This document shows, piece by piece, positions 23,328-31,450 of a DNA stretch of 32,000 nt. This DNA is from Desulfocapsa sulfexigens DSM 10523. Its GTDB lineage: Bacteria; Desulfobacterota; Desulfobulbia; Desulfobulbales; Desulfocapsaceae. Each line of letters begins with the position of its first letter. Positions within the stretch are counted from its first letter, which is position 1. Both the position numbers and the translations under genes were made by a program. The stretch covers positions 2,430,001 through 2,462,000 of the forward strand of contig NC_020304.1 in the NCBI RefSeq assembly GCF_000341395.1. Reading direction: 5' to 3'. The notes under the pieces are model-generated. The model saw only the letters and a program-made list of their open reading frames with translations. It did no database searches and was not told the origin of the DNA.

Positions 23328-24785
23328 ATGAAAGGAAAGTATTCGGGAATAACTATTGGAATGAGTGCAGGCCTTATCGCTGTTGCATCATTGGCAATGG
23401 CAACAGGAAATGGTGTGGACATGGAGCAGTATCCCTATGCACCATCACTGATCCAATGGGAGAAGTCAGCGGCGGAATTTACTGAACCCGAAACCTGCGC
23501 CGAGTGTCATCCTCAGCAATACGAGGAATGGCGTGGCTCCATGCACTCCATTGCTTTTCAGGATCCTATTTATCAGGGAGAGTTGAAACTTGCTATTGAA
23601 GCAGTGGGTCATGATGTTGCAAAACAGTGTGAAGGCTGCCATACCGCAGCAGCTGTAGTTAATGGAGAAGTAAAAGGGGCGGGTTTGAAAGATCTGAGTC
23701 CTCTTGCCATGGCTGGGGTTTCCTGTGATGTCTGCCATTCCATAAAGGGACATACCCACTGGCAGACTCCGACCCATCAACCGGAAAACGGGTCGATGAT
23801 CCTGTCTCCCGGAAAAGAAGTGGATGGCGAAGTCATTCTTACGAAATTCGGTCCCTTTCCTGCCAGTGAAGATTGTGGCGAAGGGTTTCATGAGTGCGTT
23901 GAGTCCCCCCTCCATCTGAAGACGGAGCTCTGTGCCTCCTGCCATCAGGTCACCCATTACGAAAAACATACCCCTCTGGAAATGACGTATACGGAGTGGA
24001 AAAACAGTACCTACGCAGCAAAAGATATTAATTGTCAGGACTGCCATATGGTTGATCTGGAAACGTTCAAACGTTCTGCAGACACCTTCCAGAAACCTGT
24101 TCGAGGTGAATATCATCATTATTTTAACGGCGCTAATTTTCTGATGTATGCACTGACTGAAATGGCGGCAAAAAAGGCTGGAGATGAGGAGTTGGCTGTC
24201 AGCGCCCGCCAAAAATATGAGATGGCAGTAGGTCGGTTACAGGCTGCAGCTGAGTTGGATATCGATCCCATTTATCGGGACGGCAGGCTGGCTGAAGTGA
24301 AGATTCGAGTGAATAACAGACGTGCCGGGCATAACCTTCCAACCTCTCTGACAAATATTCGTCAGATGTGGCTTGAGGTGACAGCCACTGATGCCTCAGG
24401 AAAGGTCGTGATGAGCAGTGGGCATATTGATGAAAAAGGAAAACTTCCAGAAGGAACCAGACTGTTTAATTCAGACGGAATGGGGGAAAATATGCATTTT
24501 GCTCTTGATCCCTGGGAAATAGTCAGTTTTTCCAAGCACGATACAATACCCCCGAAGGGGTACCGCGAGGTGCATTATGGGCTGAGCAGTAACAGCAGTA
24601 CTCCGATCACCTTGAATGTAAAACTTCGTTTTCGTCAGGCAAACCAGAAAGTGGCTGAAAAACTTCTTAGTCATGTTCCCGATGATATGCACCTGGATGT
24701 CATTTACGGAATTAAGGAAGTGCCACCCGTACCCATTATAGATATGGTGGAGAAAACCTTGCAATTCGAGACCAGCGAGAAATAA
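23328..24785 (+). CDS. Periplasmic pentahaem c-type cytochrome with a haem-free C-terminal domain
   Basis: GAAGGAG lies 7 nt before the ATG. The signal peptide ends in SLAMA-TG. There are five CXXCH motifs (CAECH, CEGCH, CDVCH, CASCH, CQDCH), all within residues 57-240. Residues from about 241 to 485 contain no haem motif. Confidence 0.9.
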   Translation: MKGKYSGITIGMSAGLIAVASLAMATGNGVDMEQYPYAPSLIQWEKSAAEFTEPETCAECHPQQYEEWRGSMHSIAFQDPIYQGELKLAIEAVGHDVAKQCEGCHTAAAVVNGEVKGAGLKDLSPLAMAGVSCDVCHSIKGHTHWQTPTHQPENGSMILSPGKEVDGEVILTKFGPFPASEDCGEGFHECVESPLHLKTELCASCHQVTHYEKHTPLEMTYTEWKNSTYAAKDINCQDCHMVDLETFKRSADTFQKPVRGEYHHYFNGANFLMYALTEMAAKKAGDEELAVSARQKYEMAVGRLQAAAELDIDPIYRDGRLAEVKIRVNNRRAGHNLPTSLTNIRQMWLEVTATDASGKVVMSSGHIDEKGKLPEGTRLFNSDGMGENMHFALDPWEIVSFSKHDTIPPKGYREVHYGLSSNSSTPITLNVKLRFRQANQKVAEKLLSHVPDDMHLDVIYGIKEVPPVPIIDMVEKTLQFETSEK

Positions 24786-25039
24786 TTAGTTAATATTACA
24801 GTATCTTATTTGTTTCTAATCAAAAATGCTGGAAATTAATTACCATATACATATATACTACAAAGATATCAACAAGAGGTGGATGATTTCACCATCATCC
24901 AAACTGCCAACCCCAAAAGGAGCTAAACATGCCTGAAGAAGCAGCTGTGGGATGTGCCAGACCTACCGGAGGACCGGTTGGTGAAGAGCCGGACAGCAAA
25001 GTAACAGATGAAAAACAACCAGCAAAAAAGGAGATTTCC

Positions 25040-25648
25040 ATGATTAAAGTTGGTAAAAAAGCCCCGGACTTCACAGCTCCGGGATTCCATAAGGGAGAAT
25101 TTATTAACACCAAGCTTTCAGATTATCTGGGAAAATGGGTTTTACTCTGTTTTTATCCGGGTGATTTTACTTTTGTCTGAGCTACTGAAATTTCAGCGGT
25201 CGCTGAAAAATATCCTGAACTTCAGAAATTAGGTGTTGAAGTCCTCTCCATGTCTATTGACTCCATGTTCACCCACAAGATGTGGGATGAAGATGAGCTG
25301 AGTAAGATGGTGGACGGCGGAGTCCCCTTTCCAATGCTTTCAGATGCGGGCGGTAAAGTTGGGACCGTCTATGGTGTTTATGACGAGGATGCGGGAGTTG
25401 AGGCCCGTGGCCGTTTTATCATTGATCCCGATGGTGTGGTTCAGGGCTATGAGGTTCTCACTCCACCAGTTGGCCGAAATGTCAATGAGACCTTCCGTCA
25501 GGTACAGGCATTTCAACTGGTACGGGAAACCAAGGGCGGAGAAGCTACACCTTCTGGATGGCGACCAGGTAAGGCAACGCTCAAACCGGGAATTGATCTT
25601 GTTGGTAAGGTCTGGAAAGTGTGGAAGACAGAACAGGCCTTTGACTGA
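25040..25648 (+). CDS. prxU: Selenocysteine-containing peroxiredoxin (PrxU type); the TGA at 25178-25180 is read as Sec
   Basis: ORFs 24929-25180 and 25250-25648 are in the same frame and are separated only by a TGA. Read-through gives [45 protein letters not shown]. The stop therefore sits exactly where 2-Cys Prx/AhpC proteins have the peroxidatic Cys (FYPxDFTFVCPTE). Downstream Prx motifs are intact ([28 protein letters not shown]). AAGGAG lies 6 nt before the ATG at 25040, giving 202 aa. Confidence 0.85.
25191..25208 (+). promoter_or_regulatory. Bacterial SECIS-like hairpin directing Sec insertion at TGA 25178
   Basis: TTTCAGC (25191-25197) pairs with GCTGAAA (25202-25208). The 4-nt apical loop is GGTC (25198-25201). 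The stem starts 10-11 nt after the UGA. The E. coli fdhF SECIS also has a GGUC apical loop and an 11-nt spacing requirement (from memory). Confidence 0.6.
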
Positions 25649-25712
25649 TACTTTGTTTGCAGTAAAAAGCAGAATGGGATGAAAAAATTTATATTCTAAA
25701 AGAGGTGTTATT

Positions 25713-25871
25713 ATGCAGAAATGGGAATGCCCTTGTGGCTATATATACGATCCTGAAGAAGGGGATTATGAGAATGGGGTTGAGCCTGGTACTCCCTGGG
25801 AAAAACTCCCGGAAGGGTGGGTTTGTCCTAAATGCGGCGCAGAAAAAGAAGATTTCTGGAAAGCTGACTAA
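25713..25871 (+). CDS. Rubredoxin (52 aa) with an atypical C-x-C first knuckle
   Basis: This gene is absent from the ORF track because it is under 60 aa. My translation is [52 protein letters not shown]. It has the rubredoxin hallmarks GYIYDP, PGT.W..LP..W.CP.CGA.K..F. AGAGGTG lies 5 nt upstream of the ATG. Confidence 0.85.
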
Positions 25872-25884
25872 GTAAGCTATAAAA

Positions 25885-25918
25885 GGCAGAATCATTAAGT
25901 TGATTCTGCCTTTTTTTT
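25885..25918. terminator. Strong rho-independent terminator after rubredoxin; possibly bidirectional, also serving convergent tamB
   Basis: There is a perfect 10-bp stem, GGCAGAATCA (25885-25894) pairing with TGATTCTGCC (25901-25910). The loop is TTAAGT and a T8 run follows (25911-25918). An A4 run precedes the stem. Confidence 0.8.
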
Positions 25919-25997
25919 GACCACGAGAATAACCCGTATTTCTCTCTTGAAGGGACTGTAAACAAATAGCTGGCAGTCTGGATTTATGACCAAATGG

Positions 25998-28900
25998 TCA
26001 CCACAGGCGTGTAGGTACGACAGCAGCATCTTCAAGTTCAATGGTGTAGAAGATATCTCCGGCATTACTGCTTGTACCGGTTGTGGTCTGGAGATGAATA
26101 TTGCGGTTCAGGCGATAGCGGGTTATAAACTCACTTTCACCCGTTTTCACATCCGTGCCCACTGAAACGGAAAGTTTACTGTTGATCTGCCTGCCAATGG
26201 AGAGTCTTGTCCCCGTTGATGTCTCTGGCGAGGATCCGGTGAGCAGGTAAGATATTACATGACTTTCAGACATCGGCGGGTTGGAAAAGGTGGTCAACCT
26301 GGGTTTTTTCAGTGGACCGATGGCATAGATTCCCGCCACAACATCTCCGACGGTACGTGTTGCTCGAAGATTTATGCCCGGCTGGCTTAACGGGCCACCG
26401 GCAAAAGAAATCACCCCTGTTTCTATATCAAGATCCTGACCATAGGCCCGAAAACTTCCCTGTTCAATATAAAAAGCACCACTGCCGATCATCTGTTCAT
26501 CCGGTTCGGAGAGGATGGTTATTTGACCATTGATGTAGGTGTTAAACCCAAGTCCCACAAAGTGCACCCTGTCTTCAAGACTAATTTTGAGCAGCATACG
26601 AAATGGCGATTTTACCTCATTCTCCTTTTGTTGTTCCTGAAGAATAACCACGTCAGGAGAGGCTGACAGGCTGCCAGGTGGTAATTCCCGCAGTAAAATA
26701 TCGGCTTTGGGAATGCTGGCTACTCCGGTGAGACTCACAAGGCCATTGTTTTTTTCAAAAAGAATGTCAGATGAAAGCAATATAGTAATATCGGGCAGGT
26801 TGACCAGTCTGAAGTTGTTGCCCTTAAGCGTAAGACGTGCAGGCCAACCCTTTTCGCTGTCAAGAGTTGCGTTTCCTTCAAGCTGCATTGATCCCTCGGG
26901 GGACTGGAGGCTTCCTTTAAGGGTTATCTCTTTGTTGTCTGCTGTAAGATCAAAACTGCTGTCCGTGAGATCAAGTCCTATCACAGGAATAAGGACGTGG
27001 CTAATGCTAAGTTGTCCATTTCCATCAATGTCAGGTTCTTCGACGGTTCCGAGAATTGTGAAATTGAGGTCTATGGCTCCACTTAAACCTTTAACATCGG
27101 GAACCAGAGCTTCGACCAGCTCGAAGTGTTTGGCATTAACCAGGAGAGTACCCTGAAGCTTCGCCTTGCCTCCAATATCTTTCTGGAGAAGATTTGGTGA
27201 TTGTATATGACCACTCAGGATATTCGAATTTGCACTGATATGAAAGTCTGTCTCGAGGGCATCGTCAACGATCTTCAGTTTGAGGGCTAATCCTTCATGG
27301 GGAAGCGTCCCTTCCGCTTTCTCAGTTTGATAGGAGATTTCTCCAGGTGTTATTGCCGCAGTTGCATCAACTTTGAGTTTGTCTTTCATGGTGACCGTGG
27401 CCTGGGCAGAAAAGAGACCCGTCAGGCTCTCCAGAGTCTCGGGGAACCATGGGGAAAGCCAGTTAAGCGGAATTTTATTTATTCGTAAGTTTCCACTGGT
27501 ATCTTTGTTTTCAGAATTCCACATTCCCTCAATACAGAGATCTGAATTGTCTCTTCTGAGACAGAGAGGGGCAAGCGAAGCAGCAGTCACAGAGGCGGAA
27601 ATTGTTGTAGGCTCCTGCATCTGCCAATTACCGAGTTCCGTGGAAAGAATCGAAAATGTATCGAGCAGTCCACGCCATTTATCGTCACTGTAGCCTCCGC
27701 TGAGGGTAAGGCTGATATCCGCCATATCATGGTCTGCTTTGATTTGAACTGTGTGCTCTTCTCTGTTGCCTTTTCCCTGTAAATAAAAGGCGTTAATCAG
27801 GCTATATCCCGATTTGAGGCCGCCTGCGTTGAAAGTGAAAGAAAAGGGGTTGGTCCAGCTTAAATCGAGATCCACATCTGCTTGAATAGTATCCAGGGTT
27901 AAATCGGTGTAGGTAATGGAGTTTCCAGAAAGCGCGATGTCAATCTGTGGTTCTGTCATGCTCTTCCGTATCGTCCCGGAGGCTTTGATTTGTCCGGAGC
28001 TGTCTGGCAGGAGGTCTGAAAAATCTGCGATATCTGCTTTCCACTGCAGATTGGATTGTTCACCGAGGTTGCCAGAGGCAGTGATTGTTGCGCTGCCGGA
28101 TGCCAGATTTAAATCCTCAATGCGGATATCATTTGGCTTTACTGTGATACCTCCCGTTCCGGTGATGGGGAGTTCCCGTAACCTGCCATTCAGACTGTCG
28201 ATTATGATATTACTACTAACGCCATCCTCTTCAATAAAACCGTTCGATCCTATCAACCAGTTGAGTCTCCCAGGCCAGTCTGGGTAGTAGATTCCGGGAT
28301 TGATCTGTGTGCCTTTTATTTTCAGGTTCCATTTGATATCTGGTCCCCACGCAACATCACCCTGGAGAACAACTTCGCCCCCCAAAAGGCCAAGAGTGAG
28401 CTGCAGGTTCTTGAGATTGTCTGCGGAACCTTGCGCGTTCAGGTTGACCGTGCTCGCTGGAAGGTCATTGCCGGTAAGCAGGCCATCAAGAACTATATGA
28501 TAGGAATCAATAGTTCCTTTGAGGGTAGCTTCACCCTTGGGAGAGCCATAGTCTGCAGCTCCGTGAACGGGCCATTGCAGCTCCTGCCAGTGCAGCAGTA
28601 AATCGAAGAAGTTTTGTCCAATGTCAGCGATTCCTGTGATATCGAGAATAGCTTCGTTTTCTGGTTGTTTCAGGGTGAATTGTTTGATGTCAAGTGTGAG
28701 ACTTTCAAGATTTACCTGAACGTTTATGTCTGCGTCCCAGTTGACTTCAGCTGCTGTTTTATCACGTATGCTAAGCGTTGAGGCAAGTTCTGTCTGCTTG
28801 AGTGTCCCGCTTGTGGTGAGTTTTCCCGTCACTCTTCCCGGGATATCCGGAGCGAAAGCTGCCGGGATAAGTTCAGCGATCGTGAGCTTTCCATGCCAGC

Positions 28901-29660
28901 CGGGATCAGAAAGGATCTCTTTCACGGTTATATCCAGATTGGCACTGATGTCGCCACTGATTTCTTCCACTATCTGCAATTCCTCCAGATCACCACTAAG
29001 GCTCCCTTTTATTGTTATGGTTGGAATCGCTTGACTTAGGGTCGTAACATCAGTTGTGAGCTGCAGGGGGTAATTGGCGTTGGGATGTATTTTCCCCCGT
29101 ATCTGAATGGATGCCATGTCCGTGGTAACATTAAGTGTCTCGATCTGTATGGTGTCTTCGTCCCATGCCAGTTTAAGGGCTGCCTTGTCAATAGAAAGTG
29201 CTTCCGTGTCCGGGGCGGATAAGAAAGTGAAGTTGTTCAGGGCAAGTTTTTCAATGCTGAGCCTGATGGGCAGGGCGATTTCCGGCAGTGTTCCAGGGCC
29301 ACTTTCTCGCTGGTTTACCTGGCTGTTCTGGGGAGTCGCTTCGTAGGAAACATCGTCTGCTAAAATTTCCAAAATGTGAAGGTGGAGTCTGAACAGGTCT
29401 GTACTCTTCCAGTCCAGTACCAGATGTCTGATCTGAGCAACACCTGTGGAACTGCTGAACCTGATATCAGCAAGTTCCAGGCGATCAAGAATCCTGCCTC
29501 TGGCAGTCCCTATCTGCAGATTTTCATCGAGCAGTTTCTCAGCCTGAACAATAAGAAATTGAGTTCCGCTTTCGGTGCCAAGCAGAAAGAACGCAGCTGT
29601 AAACAGAAGGGACACGAGTCCGAAGAAGGCAATCGCTGCGCCAGGGAGCCATTTTTTCAC
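25998..29660 (-). CDS. tamB: Translocation and assembly module inner-membrane protein TamB (DUF490 family)
   Basis: The protein is very long (1220-1231 aa). It has an N-terminal signal-anchor (KKWLPGAAIAFFGLVSLLFTAAFFLLGTESG). The body is beta-rich and repetitive. The conserved DUF490 C-terminus reads GQITILS...GSFRAYGQDLDIETGVISFAGGPLSQPGINLRATR...LTGSSP...YRLNRNIHLQT. I preferred the GTG at 29660, which forms a GTGA overlap with the tamA stop. The TTG at 29693 from the ORF track is the alternative. Confidence 0.9.
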   Translation of the reverse strand: MKKWLPGAAIAFFGLVSLLFTAAFFLLGTESGTQFLIVQAEKLLDENLQIGTARGRILDRLELADIRFSSSTGVAQIRHLVLDWKSTDLFRLHLHILEILADDVSYEATPQNSQVNQRESGPGTLPEIALPIRLSIEKLALNNFTFLSAPDTEALSIDKAALKLAWDEDTIQIETLNVTTDMASIQIRGKIHPNANYPLQLTTDVTTLSQAIPTITIKGSLSGDLEELQIVEEISGDISANLDITVKEILSDPGWHGKLTIAELIPAAFAPDIPGRVTGKLTTSGTLKQTELASTLSIRDKTAAEVNWDADINVQVNLESLTLDIKQFTLKQPENEAILDITGIADIGQNFFDLLLHWQELQWPVHGAADYGSPKGEATLKGTIDSYHIVLDGLLTGNDLPASTVNLNAQGSADNLKNLQLTLGLLGGEVVLQGDVAWGPDIKWNLKIKGTQINPGIYYPDWPGRLNWLIGSNGFIEEDGVSSNIIIDSLNGRLRELPITGTGGITVKPNDIRIEDLNLASGSATITASGNLGEQSNLQWKADIADFSDLLPDSSGQIKASGTIRKSMTEPQIDIALSGNSITYTDLTLDTIQADVDLDLSWTNPFSFTFNAGGLKSGYSLINAFYLQGKGNREEHTVQIKADHDMADISLTLSGGYSDDKWRGLLDTFSILSTELGNWQMQEPTTISASVTAASLAPLCLRRDNSDLCIEGMWNSENKDTSGNLRINKIPLNWLSPWFPETLESLTGLFSAQATVTMKDKLKVDATAAITPGEISYQTEKAEGTLPHEGLALKLKIVDDALETDFHISANSNILSGHIQSPNLLQKDIGGKAKLQGTLLVNAKHFELVEALVPDVKGLSGAIDLNFTILGTVEEPDIDGNGQLSISHVLIPVIGLDLTDSSFDLTADNKEITLKGSLQSPEGSMQLEGNATLDSEKGWPARLTLKGNNFRLVNLPDITILLSSDILFEKNNGLVSLTGVASIPKADILLRELPPGSLSASPDVVILQEQQKENEVKSPFRMLLKISLEDRVHFVGLGFNTYINGQITILSEPDEQMIGSGAFYIEQGSFRAYGQDLDIETGVISFAGGPLSQPGINLRATRTVGDVVAGIYAIGPLKKPRLTTFSNPPMSESHVISYLLTGSSPETSTGTRLSIGRQINSKLSVSVGTDVKTGESEFITRYRLNRNIHLQTTTGTSSNAGDIFYTIELEDAAVVPTRLW

Positions 29661-31450
29661 AATGTTGCTCCAAAACCAATATGAAATCGCCAATCATTTA
29701 ATTCAGGACTTTCACTTACCGGATATGCAATATCGATACGCAGCGAACCAAAGGGTGCCAGCCAGCGCAACCCGACCCCTGCACCGACATATGCGTCCCC
29801 AAGTTTGTCATTGTAAGCATTTCCTGCATCTACAAATCCTGCTAATACCCAGGACTGGGAGACTCGATGATCATACTCCAGGCTCCCTGTTACTACATTT
29901 TTACCACCGACGCTGACACCATTAGCATTCTTCGGCCCCAGTGATTCGTATGAATATCCACGGACAGAAGTGTCTCCACCGGCAAAAAACCTGAGGGTGG
30001 CCGGGTACATGTCGAAGTCTTCAACCCAGGTTGTGCCTATCTCAATTTGTGTGTCGATACGGCCATTTTTGCCTAATCCCACCATGTACCTTCCCTTCAT
30101 GTGAAGACGGGCATAGGATGTGTCGGAAAGAAGTGCTTCTGAGGCACCGCGAAGATCTATAAACAGATAGTCGCCGTATTGAGGGAAAATAGATTCTTCT
30201 GTATCTGAAAAACGAAAGGTTCCACCAAGACTGTAGAGAGCAGTGTTTTCGTCGGGCTCACCTTCAACACTGAACTGTTCGCTTGAAGCGAGGACGAAGC
30301 CTTTGTAAAGAAGTGTGTCGGCAAGGTTTCTTCGTACGAATGCTGTTTCCATTTCAAGGGTGGCACTGCTTGTGTCGGGAGTCTGGTCAAATTCATAACT
30401 GGCTGTCGATACCCATCTGTCAGTGAGAGGTTTTACAACCGGGATATTATACTGAGCCCGAATGATGCTTTCTGTCCAGGCAAGTTTGACAGAAAGCTCC
30501 GAGTGGTGGCCGTAACGATTGAGTAATCTGTCGTCCCAGCGTGCGGATCCACGAATTCCTGTGTCGGAATCATAGCCGACCCCAAATGTAAATTTATGTG
30601 GGGCAATCGGTTTCATAATCACAGTCAAAGGTAATTGTTGATCCAGTGATTCTTCGTAACGTGGGGTAATGGTTACTTCTCTGGCGTAATTACTTGCAAT
30701 CAGATTCTGCTGAAATTCCAGCAGGGCCTCATAGGAATAGGGGGTTCCCTTTTCCATGGTGATGTATTTTGTGAGCAGGTCTGGATTAAGAAAATCCTGC
30801 AGAAAAGTGATATTTCCAAAGTAATACAGAGGACCGGTATCCATGTGAAGAGTTAATTTTGCAGTGTTGCTATCAAGATCAACCAGCCATTCACTTGTTA
30901 TGAATCTTGCCTTTGGATATCCATTGGAAAAGGCTATGTTCATAAAAGTATTCTTTGCTGCTTCATACTCTGCATGGATCAGGGTTTTCCCTGCCTTTCT
31001 AAGGTAATCCTTTATGCTCTGCTGGAGTGCCGGATGGTTCATTCCTTCACCAAACCATTGTACGTCTCTACCTGTTATGACAACAGGTTCTCCCTTGTCT
31101 ACTCTGTAGGTGGCGAACCATTGACCATCTTCTTCGATCAACGCCGAGCGAATCTCTGGAATATAATAGCCAAAGGGTTGCAGGGCTTCACGAATTTCCT
31201 GCGGCGCCTGCTGGTGTAGCTTCTTGATCCAACGCGGGGTGAGATCCTCGTCATTTTTCATTTTGTTGATATCGAGAAAAAGGAGGACATTTTGCCGAAA
31301 GGGGGCTTCGAGTCCGGTAAGGTCTACACTAAGAGGTGTTGCAGCCATGGCCGGAAAGGAAAACAGGATAAGGAGCAGGCTGAATGCAAGTTGGATGCTT
31401 CGTAAAACATACTGGCTGGGAATGCTTGGGAGGAACATAAAAATGTTCAT
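29657..31450 (-). CDS. tamA: Outer-membrane protein assembly factor TamA (Omp85/BamA family: POTRA domains plus a 16-stranded barrel)
   Basis: The signal peptide ends in FPAMA-AT. A POTRA-like N-terminal region follows. The Omp85 barrel motifs are FFAGGDTSVRGYSYESLGP...GGKNVVTGSLEY...FVDAGNAY...GAGVGLRWLAPFGSLRIDIAYP...RFHIGFGATL. The gene lies directly upstream of tamB. Confidence 0.9.
   Translation of the reverse strand: MNIFMFLPSIPSQYVLRSIQLAFSLLLILFSFPAMAATPLSVDLTGLEAPFRQNVLLFLDINKMKNDEDLTPRWIKKLHQQAPQEIREALQPFGYYIPEIRSALIEEDGQWFATYRVDKGEPVVITGRDVQWFGEGMNHPALQQSIKDYLRKAGKTLIHAEYEAAKNTFMNIAFSNGYPKARFITSEWLVDLDSNTAKLTLHMDTGPLYYFGNITFLQDFLNPDLLTKYITMEKGTPYSYEALLEFQQNLIASNYAREVTITPRYEESLDQQLPLTVIMKPIAPHKFTFGVGYDSDTGIRGSARWDDRLLNRYGHHSELSVKLAWTESIIRAQYNIPVVKPLTDRWVSTASYEFDQTPDTSSATLEMETAFVRRNLADTLLYKGFVLASSEQFSVEGEPDENTALYSLGGTFRFSDTEESIFPQYGDYLFIDLRGASEALLSDTSYARLHMKGRYMVGLGKNGRIDTQIEIGTTWVEDFDMYPATLRFFAGGDTSVRGYSYESLGPKNANGVSVGGKNVVTGSLEYDHRVSQSWVLAGFVDAGNAYNDKLGDAYVGAGVGLRWLAPFGSLRIDIAYPVSESPELNDWRFHIGFGATL

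Follow-up and report, generated by a model that had tools for sequence, protein, structure and literature searches.

A stretch of 32,000 nucleotides (nt) of Desulfocapsa sulfexigens DSM 10523 (contig NC_020304.1, positions 2,430,001 to 2,462,000; hereafter the window, in whose own numbering positions are given) carries prxU, encoding a selenocysteine (Sec) peroxiredoxin (Prx), and downstream of it on the same strand a gene encoding an atypical rubredoxin. Our analysis suggests, with a probability of roughly 0.6, that the two genes form a lineage-specific oxidative-stress operon of two known kinds of genes and not an electron-transfer pair: the peroxiredoxin would be recycled by Cys9 of its N-terminal arm and thioredoxin, and the rubredoxin would serve iron enzymes. 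An earlier note on this DNA had proposed that the rubredoxin reduces the peroxiredoxin, which was described there as a 1-Sec enzyme. The features of prxU that bear on this question are as follows.

24929-25648, plus strand: prxU, a 239-amino acid (aa) selenocysteine peroxiredoxin (NF040737; Pfam AhpC-TSA and 1-cysPrx_C)
24917-24922, plus strand: Shine-Dalgarno (SD) sequence AAGGAG of the long prxU open reading frame (ORF), 6 nt before ATG 24929
24929-25039, plus strand: N-terminal arm of 37 residues, a conserved Cys-bearing motif followed by a variable linker rich in Glu, Lys, Pro and Thr
24953-24955, 25178-25180 and 25547-25549, plus strand: key residues Cys9, Sec84 (TGA) and Thr207 (the usual position of the resolving Cys), respectively, to which Cys74 is added
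25191-25208, plus strand: hairpin of the selenocysteine insertion sequence (SECIS) type, 13 nt after the UGA, with stems 25191-25197 and 25202-25208 and loop GGUC 25198-25201

The protein scores 421.9 bits with the NF040737 (peroxi_PrxU) profile at a cut-off of 270, residues 7-235 being aligned with profile positions 2-232 of 233. The six-frame search of the genome gives 415.8 bits for PrxU, and the PF00578 match (131.5 bits) indicates an AhpC/Prx1-type core. Since the profile spans the ORF from 24929, the family includes the 37 residues upstream of position 25040. The start at 25040, assumed in the earlier note, was thus set 37 codons too late; moreover, the long-form start has a conserved SD sequence, with AGGAG located 6-7 nt before it in 19/19 aligned relatives.

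The codon UGA84 occupies the peroxidatic position (motif FTFV-U-ATE), and a single in-frame TGA is present in nearly all PrxU matches, which come from 127 of the 401 genomes of the phylum. The hairpin after this codon is supported, because its covariation falls on third codon positions. In particular, each of the seven pairs is kept in 123-142 of 142 sequences (the hairpin was specified by hand from the fold of the window, and the pair counts therefore lean towards that structure), three pairs change on both sides (UA/GC/CG/AU, UA/AU/GC and GC/AU/CG), and the loop is either GGUC or AGUU. RNAalifold, applied to the 142 post-UGA segments, yielded no consensus structure. A selB gene is encoded in the genome about 6 kb beyond the window (375 bits, cut-off 242). 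By this comparative evidence the hairpin is established as the element directing Sec insertion at the UGA 13 nt upstream of it, and prxU is a bona fide, already catalogued selenoprotein gene of a curated family; Sec-containing peroxiredoxins are a listed family of prokaryotic selenoproteins (PMC13188914).

As the earlier note had stated, the usual C-terminal resolving Cys is absent: the corresponding motif reads GEATPSGW, with Thr207 in the position of this residue according to the alignment with the structure 4fh8. The further statement that the protein has no resolving Cys does not hold, as an invariant Cys9 is located on the overlooked arm. The arm motif with its Cys is conserved in 123 arm-bearing PrxUs of the phylum and in all of the best 80 PrxU matches across the species collection, whose record titles name, among others, Nitrospirota, Spirochaetota, Acidobacteria, Caldithrix, Cloacimonadota, Fibrobacter, KSB1 and Anaerolineae. 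The positions of Cys9, Cys74 and Sec84 are invariant in 51/51 diverse long forms, 55-95% identical to the protein from the window. In the AlphaFold2 model of the PrxU monomer the core has mostly pLDDT (predicted local distance difference test) values above 90, while arm residues 9-33 fall below 50 and are predicted to be disordered. The arm was also considered as a lipoprotein signal or a signal peptide, and both were rejected, since no hydrophobic segment precedes Cys9.

The 148 PrxU copies from the phylum sample (related sequences, not independent observations) were sorted by their cysteines into forms with the arm Cys and armless forms, with positions after Sec counted from it.

Forms with the arm Cys, 123 copies: no Cys after Sec in 113, Cys near +123 (GxEVCPAGW) in 10, the Cys+111/Cys+143 pair in 0
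Armless forms, 25 copies: no Cys after Sec in 4, Cys near +123 in 10, the Cys+111/Cys+143 pair in 11

Hence 21 of the 25 armless forms have either Cys+123 or the Cys+111/+143 pair, and at least two of the four armless copies lacking such cysteines are truncated or misread at the N-terminus. All of the best 80 cross-phylum matches (80/80) have the arm Cys and no C-terminal Cys. Because the distribution of the arm Cys is complementary to that of the C-terminal cysteines, Cys9 is likely the resolving residue. This complementarity, read from alignments, argues against the 1-Sec status of the full-length PrxU. The inference that an unusual reductant is needed also fails for the full-length protein, because Cys9 supplies the likely resolving residue. 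The Cys+111/Cys+143 pair may represent a third resolving arrangement within the PrxU family; it was observed in eleven short PrxUs (L115, second copy; L134-L136, L138, L140-L142, L145, L147 and L148).

The position taken earlier for the start of the gene has features of its own.

25028-25042, plus strand: internal SD sequence AAGGAG (25028-25033) and in-frame ATG (25040-25042), the start assumed in the earlier note

An in-frame ATG directly precedes the Prx core in 191/197 long-form genes, and AGGAG or GGAGG is found at positions -16 to -5 of the internal ATG in 87% of cases, compared to 0-20% in other 12-nt windows of the gene. ATG 25040 is therefore a probable second initiation site, giving an armless isoform that would be 1-Sec, and the conserved putative ribosome-binding site implies such a second isoform across many phyla.

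The second gene of the pair encodes a rubredoxin with an unusual first knuckle.

25713-25871, plus strand: 52-aa rubredoxin (PF00301), first knuckle C6-P-C8 (CxC), second knuckle C38-P-K-C41

The protein matches PF00301 with 72.2 bits (cut-off 23); its score with the NCBIfam equivalog NF045768 (RubredRD) is 76.9 bits, below the cut-off of 90. It was rightly called atypical: the second knuckle is canonical CxxC, and the first one has a one-residue deletion relative to every solved rubredoxin matched. CxC is not a sequencing slip, because the motif recurs in 28 of the 29 orthologues (27 with ECPCGY and one with ECDCGY; the 29th is a partial match that does not cover the knuckle region). These orthologues come from 29 of 41 relatives (L153-L179 among the loci) and represent about 11 families of the order, the genes being mostly stand-alone and found in varied contexts. 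No Prx neighbour is present in 18/29 of the CxC loci. In three other families (L170, L173, L175) the CxC rubredoxin gene adjoins a gene for an AhpC-type Prx, 69-73% identical to the ordinary AhpC-type Prx of the D. sulfexigens genome, which has its resolving Cys in YGDVCPANW. The CxC rubredoxin gene in these three loci also adjoins a gene for a conserved 124-127-aa protein (MMNLEELK...DWTMTPEKAI...), for which the Pfam scan of one copy (L175) gave no match. In L166, L174 and L178 the CxC rubredoxin gene follows a gene for another conserved protein of about 107-146 aa, again with no Pfam match for the scanned copies (L174, L178).

The signals around the two genes are consistent with a single transcription unit.

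24830-24859, plus strand: promoter-like site upstream of prxU, TGGAAA and TATACT separated by 18 nt (9/12 matches in the consensus scan)
24880-24901, plus strand: inverted repeat TGGATGAT-N6-ATCATCCA between the promoter-like site and the prxU SD sequence, reported by the scan as a hairpin
25649-25712, plus strand: spacer of 64 nt, free of terminators, with the rubredoxin SD sequence AAGAGGTG at 25700-25707
25881-25918, plus strand: intrinsic terminator closing the two-gene unit, with a 14-bp stem, a 6-nt loop and a U8 tail

The stop codon of prxU (TGA, 25646-25648) and the rubredoxin ATG (25713) are 64 nt apart on the plus strand, in agreement with the distance given in the earlier note. Its observation that no terminator separates the genes is confirmed as well: the fold of the spacer is weak (-10.5 kcal/mol, z -1.3), and the consensus scan lists neither promoter-like nor terminator-like sites there. 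The strong terminator reported after the rubredoxin gene was missed by the simple consensus scan and picked up by folding (-20.4 kcal/mol, z -5.8, none of 200 shuffles being as strong); it is convergent with tamB (25998-29693, minus strand; TamB by Pfam). Thus, prxU and the rubredoxin gene look co-transcribed in this species, and the bicistronic layout and its link to oxidative stress are supported at the sequence level.

Upstream of prxU, the closest relatives (L017, L013, L014) have TATACT of the putative promoter at the corresponding place in the alignment. The arms GGATGA..TCATCC of the inverted repeat are kept in most members of the genus, and L009 has the compensatory variant GGAATGG/CCATTCC; the repeat may be a control element, either a hairpin in the 5'-untranslated region (UTR) or an operator. 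The Rfam E-value scan of region 24700-26000 gave chance matches only (snoRNA and miRNA models below their gathering scores), and neither the 5'-UTR repeat nor the SECIS hairpin has an Rfam match.

The ten flanking genes encode a transporter, Band 7/NfeD proteins, a thioesterase, a c554-like multihaem cytochrome, TamB/TamA, Der, a DUF2959 protein and a protein with no Pfam match. None of them has a thiol-redox domain, and no match to thioredoxin (Trx) or thioredoxin reductase (TrxR) was obtained in the window, as had been claimed for the vicinity of prxU. The gene directly upstream of prxU is that of the c554-like cytochrome (23328-24785). In several members of the genus (L007, L011, L012, L020, L023, L182, L185) the gene in this place encodes instead a protein of about 200 aa, whose N-terminal part is a rubredoxin-like zinc ribbon and whose C-terminal part is hydrophobic.

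The earlier note had made conservation of the prxU-rubredoxin adjacency in Sec-decoding anaerobes a check of its proposal, and its absence a refutation; the latter is largely what was found. The counts for relatives are not independent, many genomes are fragmented metagenome-assembled ones, and loci L004-L051 have flanks of only 1.5 kb. Among the 41 relatives, the CxC rubredoxin was found in 29, PrxU above the cut-off in 19, and both in 18; the two genes are adjacent in 8 of these 18 and lie on different contigs in 10. The CxC rubredoxin was found, and PrxU was not, in 10 relatives, one of these genomes being 100% complete. Direct adjacency is seen in 9/18 loci of the genus, and on the prxU gene tree the adjacent/separate state requires at least five changes among 20 tips. 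Where the rubredoxin gene lies apart, prxU carries its own downstream hairpin.

Outside the genus, rubredoxin adjoins 3/132 PrxU copies of the phylum sample (same strand, within 300 nt), its gene lying upstream in L021 and downstream in L137 and L139. Each of the three rubredoxins is of the canonical CxxC type, and the PrxUs of L137 and L139 are short forms with a C-terminal Cys. Adjacency among the best 80 cross-phylum matches is 3/80 (L181, L240, L248), and in 7 further loci outside the genus a rubredoxin gene is located within 1.5 kb of prxU. The pairing is therefore mostly confined to one genus and labile, and the linkage across peroxidase-bearing taxa that would mark a dedicated reductant-peroxidase pair was not observed. 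Moreover, the meetings of rubredoxins and peroxiredoxins involve different rubredoxins and different Prxs, with or without a resolving Cys. As rubredoxin genes stand beside Prxs having this residue, its absence is not what attracts them.

The wider setting of these meetings is always an oxidative-stress island of the kind seen in anaerobes, in which rubredoxin is known to serve the iron enzymes. In the phylum sample, direct neighbours of PrxU are flavodoxin-like proteins (14), rubrerythrin (11), Fur/PerR-like regulators (6) and desulfoferrodoxin (6), and genes for a flavodiiron protein, a rubredoxin-reductase-like protein, cytochrome bd and catalase are found within 1.5 kb. The flavodoxin-like gene adjoins prxU in 14 loci (11 downstream, 3 upstream; e.g. 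L087, L110), and a gene for a 65-aa zinc-ribbon protein is directly downstream of prxU in four; outside the genus, both are commoner direct neighbours of PrxU than rubredoxin. The D. sulfexigens genome has six rubrerythrin-family and two superoxide reductase-family matches, and adjacent trxA and trxB genes (C1:1860834-1862133), trxB scoring above its equivalog cut-off. Some of these rubrerythrin and superoxide reductase matches lie in an island (C1:1685464-1689120, partly covered by locus L002) that encodes two rubrerythrins together with desulfoferrodoxin, an AhpC-type Prx and a double rubredoxin of 180 aa, whose first domain reads C-x4-C (YQCQMVNCGY).

Four points are established by sequence comparison: prxU belongs to the curated family, its Sec codon is followed by the hairpin, the arm Cys is invariant and complementary in its distribution, and the two genes have an operon-like layout. 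On this basis we propose the following scheme. In the evolution of the long forms the C-terminal resolving Cys would have been replaced by Cys9 on a disordered arm of about 35 residues. Sec84 would reduce peroxide, and the resulting selenenic acid would most likely condense with Cys9, forming a selenenylsulfide. The latter would be reduced by a dithiol protein, the simplest candidate being the thioredoxin/thioredoxin reductase system encoded elsewhere in the genome. The internal SD sequence and ATG probably yield the armless isoform as well. The rubredoxin would most likely act in the usual way, delivering single electrons to the rubrerythrins and superoxide reductases encoded in the genome, and would share with prxU a stress-responsive promoter or regulation, not electrons.

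Several observations weigh against this scheme. PrxU and the rubredoxin co-occur strongly within the genus (17 genomes with both, 6 with neither, 2 with the rubredoxin only and 0 with PrxU only). Independent rubredoxin-Prx juxtapositions arose several times, more often than expected by chance, so that a closer functional tie is possible. Trx or TrxR genes are located near PrxU in only 4/229 loci, and therefore the gene context does not favour thioredoxin either. The AlphaFold2 model, made for the monomer and with the arm disordered, offers no support for a Cys9-Sec84 contact, and the search for the C-terminal domain revealed no Rubredoxin_C-type NADH:rubredoxin reductase in the genome.

Some of these points fit the proposal that the rubredoxin, directly or via a thiol, is the physiological reductant of the Sec peroxiredoxin, for instance by reducing the selenenic acid of the armless isoform in two one-electron steps. 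The genes look co-transcribed, they are adjacent in half of the genus loci and co-occur in the genus, canonical rubredoxins have paired with PrxUs independently (L021, L137/L139, L240, L248), initiation at the internal ATG could produce a form lacking the resolving Cys, and selenium is more tolerant of one-electron chemistry than sulfur. Yet the adjacency is rare outside the genus (3/132 and 3/80) and has changed at least five times inside it, ten relatives have the CxC rubredoxin with PrxU not found, and ten of the 18 having both keep them on different contigs. Moreover, the invariant Cys9 offers a resolving residue, rubredoxin also adjoins Prxs that have one (L137, L139; L170, L173, L175), and rubredoxin carries one electron, whereas recycling of selenenic acid or selenenylsulfide takes two. 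The proposal is thus unsupported by the comparative data, and we regard it as quite improbable. In line with the remark in the earlier note that such a coupling had not been described, no rubredoxin-dependent peroxiredoxin was found in the literature searched. A narrower version of the proposal is very improbable indeed: the armless isoform would be a true 1-Sec enzyme, with rubredoxin recycling its selenenic acid in two one-electron steps, and the arm-bearing isoform would rely on Cys9 and thioredoxin; if true, the armless isoform with rubredoxin would constitute the first iron-sulfur-driven, thiol-independent peroxiredoxin cycle.

The role of the CxC rubredoxin could also be broader, that of a general peroxiredoxin-associated factor of the order (a redox adaptor, sensor or metal handler) serving both PrxU and the AhpC-type Prx. 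One CxC clade indeed adjoins two Prx subfamilies, PrxU in the genus and the AhpC-type orthologue in L170, L173 and L175, and the CxC knuckle, conserved across about 11 families, has no solved precedent among the rubredoxins matched; but most CxC loci (18/29) have no Prx neighbour and differ in context, and the protein departs from a textbook rubredoxin in nothing but the one-residue deletion, which makes a general role of this kind improbable. Finally, the adjacency could have no functional meaning, a small mobile gene having landed downstream of prxU in the ancestor of a part of the genus and being read through from the prxU promoter. This would agree with the lability of the arrangement (at least five changes on the tree), with the hairpin that ends prxU where the genes are apart and with the many different contexts of the rubredoxin gene. 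It is nevertheless unlikely, given that 7 further loci outside the genus have a rubredoxin gene no more than 1.5 kb from prxU, that rubrerythrin, superoxide reductase and PerR-like neighbours recur, and that repeated independent Prx-rubredoxin juxtapositions exceed chance for genes present in a few copies per genome. The stress operon with separate electron routes remains our preferred reading.

Both partners can be compared with known systems. PrxU was first described in Eubacterium acidaminophilum (Sohling et al. 2001, cited in PMC13188914). The protein from the window has the traits of the known family, scoring 152 bits above the NF040737 cut-off and having Sec in FTFVU(A/P)TE and an AhpC/Prx1-like fold. 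It differs from the E. acidaminophilum protein in being a long form, with a 37-residue arm carrying Cys9 and no C-terminal Cys. The E. acidaminophilum PrxU presumably has about 203 residues, and would then match the short forms with Cys+123 or Cys+111/+143.

Typical 2-Cys peroxiredoxins (AhpC, human Prx1 and Prx2; PDB 4fh8, 1qmv, 1yep) can be aligned with the core over about 190 residues with E-values of 1e-50 to 1e-60, the best structure matches being 4fh8 (3.7e-60) and Prx2 (1.7e-58). The active-site motif and the C-terminal GE..P.GW segment are common to both. The Cys in the C-terminal GE-V-C-P motif, characteristic of typical 2-Cys enzymes, is absent from PrxU; unlike them, the protein from the window has Sec as the peroxidatic residue, Thr207 in place of the resolving Cys and the candidate resolving Cys at the opposite end of the chain, on the disordered arm. 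Cysteines upstream of the Prx core take part in disulfide chemistry in yeast Ahp1 (Cys31) and human Prx4 (Cys51, 3tkp), and the profile aligned Prx4 chains from position 9 onward. However, Prx4 keeps the C-terminal resolving Cys, unlike the PrxU from the window, and Ahp1, a member of another subfamily, lacks a long tether.

Rubredoxin together with rubrerythrin, superoxide reductase or a flavodiiron protein forms oxidative-stress systems of anaerobes (Weinberg et al. 2004, cited in PMC7465337). Genes for these enzymes are recurrent PrxU neighbours elsewhere, and the rubrerythrin and superoxide reductase families are present in the D. sulfexigens genome. In such systems single electrons are passed to iron centres, and a thiol or selenol peroxidase as the acceptor was not found in the literature searched. 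A rubredoxin that reduced a peroxiredoxin would connect two peroxide defences of anaerobes, the iron-based and the thiol-based one, and provide a new catalytic rationale for selenium. Because the comparative evidence does not point to this, there is nothing unusual about the operon itself, in which known kinds of gene, for a Prx of a curated family and a CxC variant rubredoxin, are combined at the level of one genus.

Two features, by comparison, concern the PrxU family as a whole, namely the Cys on the N-terminal tether and the conserved second start. We found neither of them described in the literature searched, where nothing relevant was found on an N-terminal resolving Cys or on the mechanism of PrxU. 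In the commonest bacterial Sec peroxiredoxin, found in 127/401 genomes of the phylum and, as the record titles indicate, in no fewer than eight other phyla, the resolving Cys seems to have shifted to a disordered tether at the N-terminus. This tethered Cys and the conserved internal putative ribosome-binding site should be of interest to specialists in both peroxiredoxins and selenoproteins.

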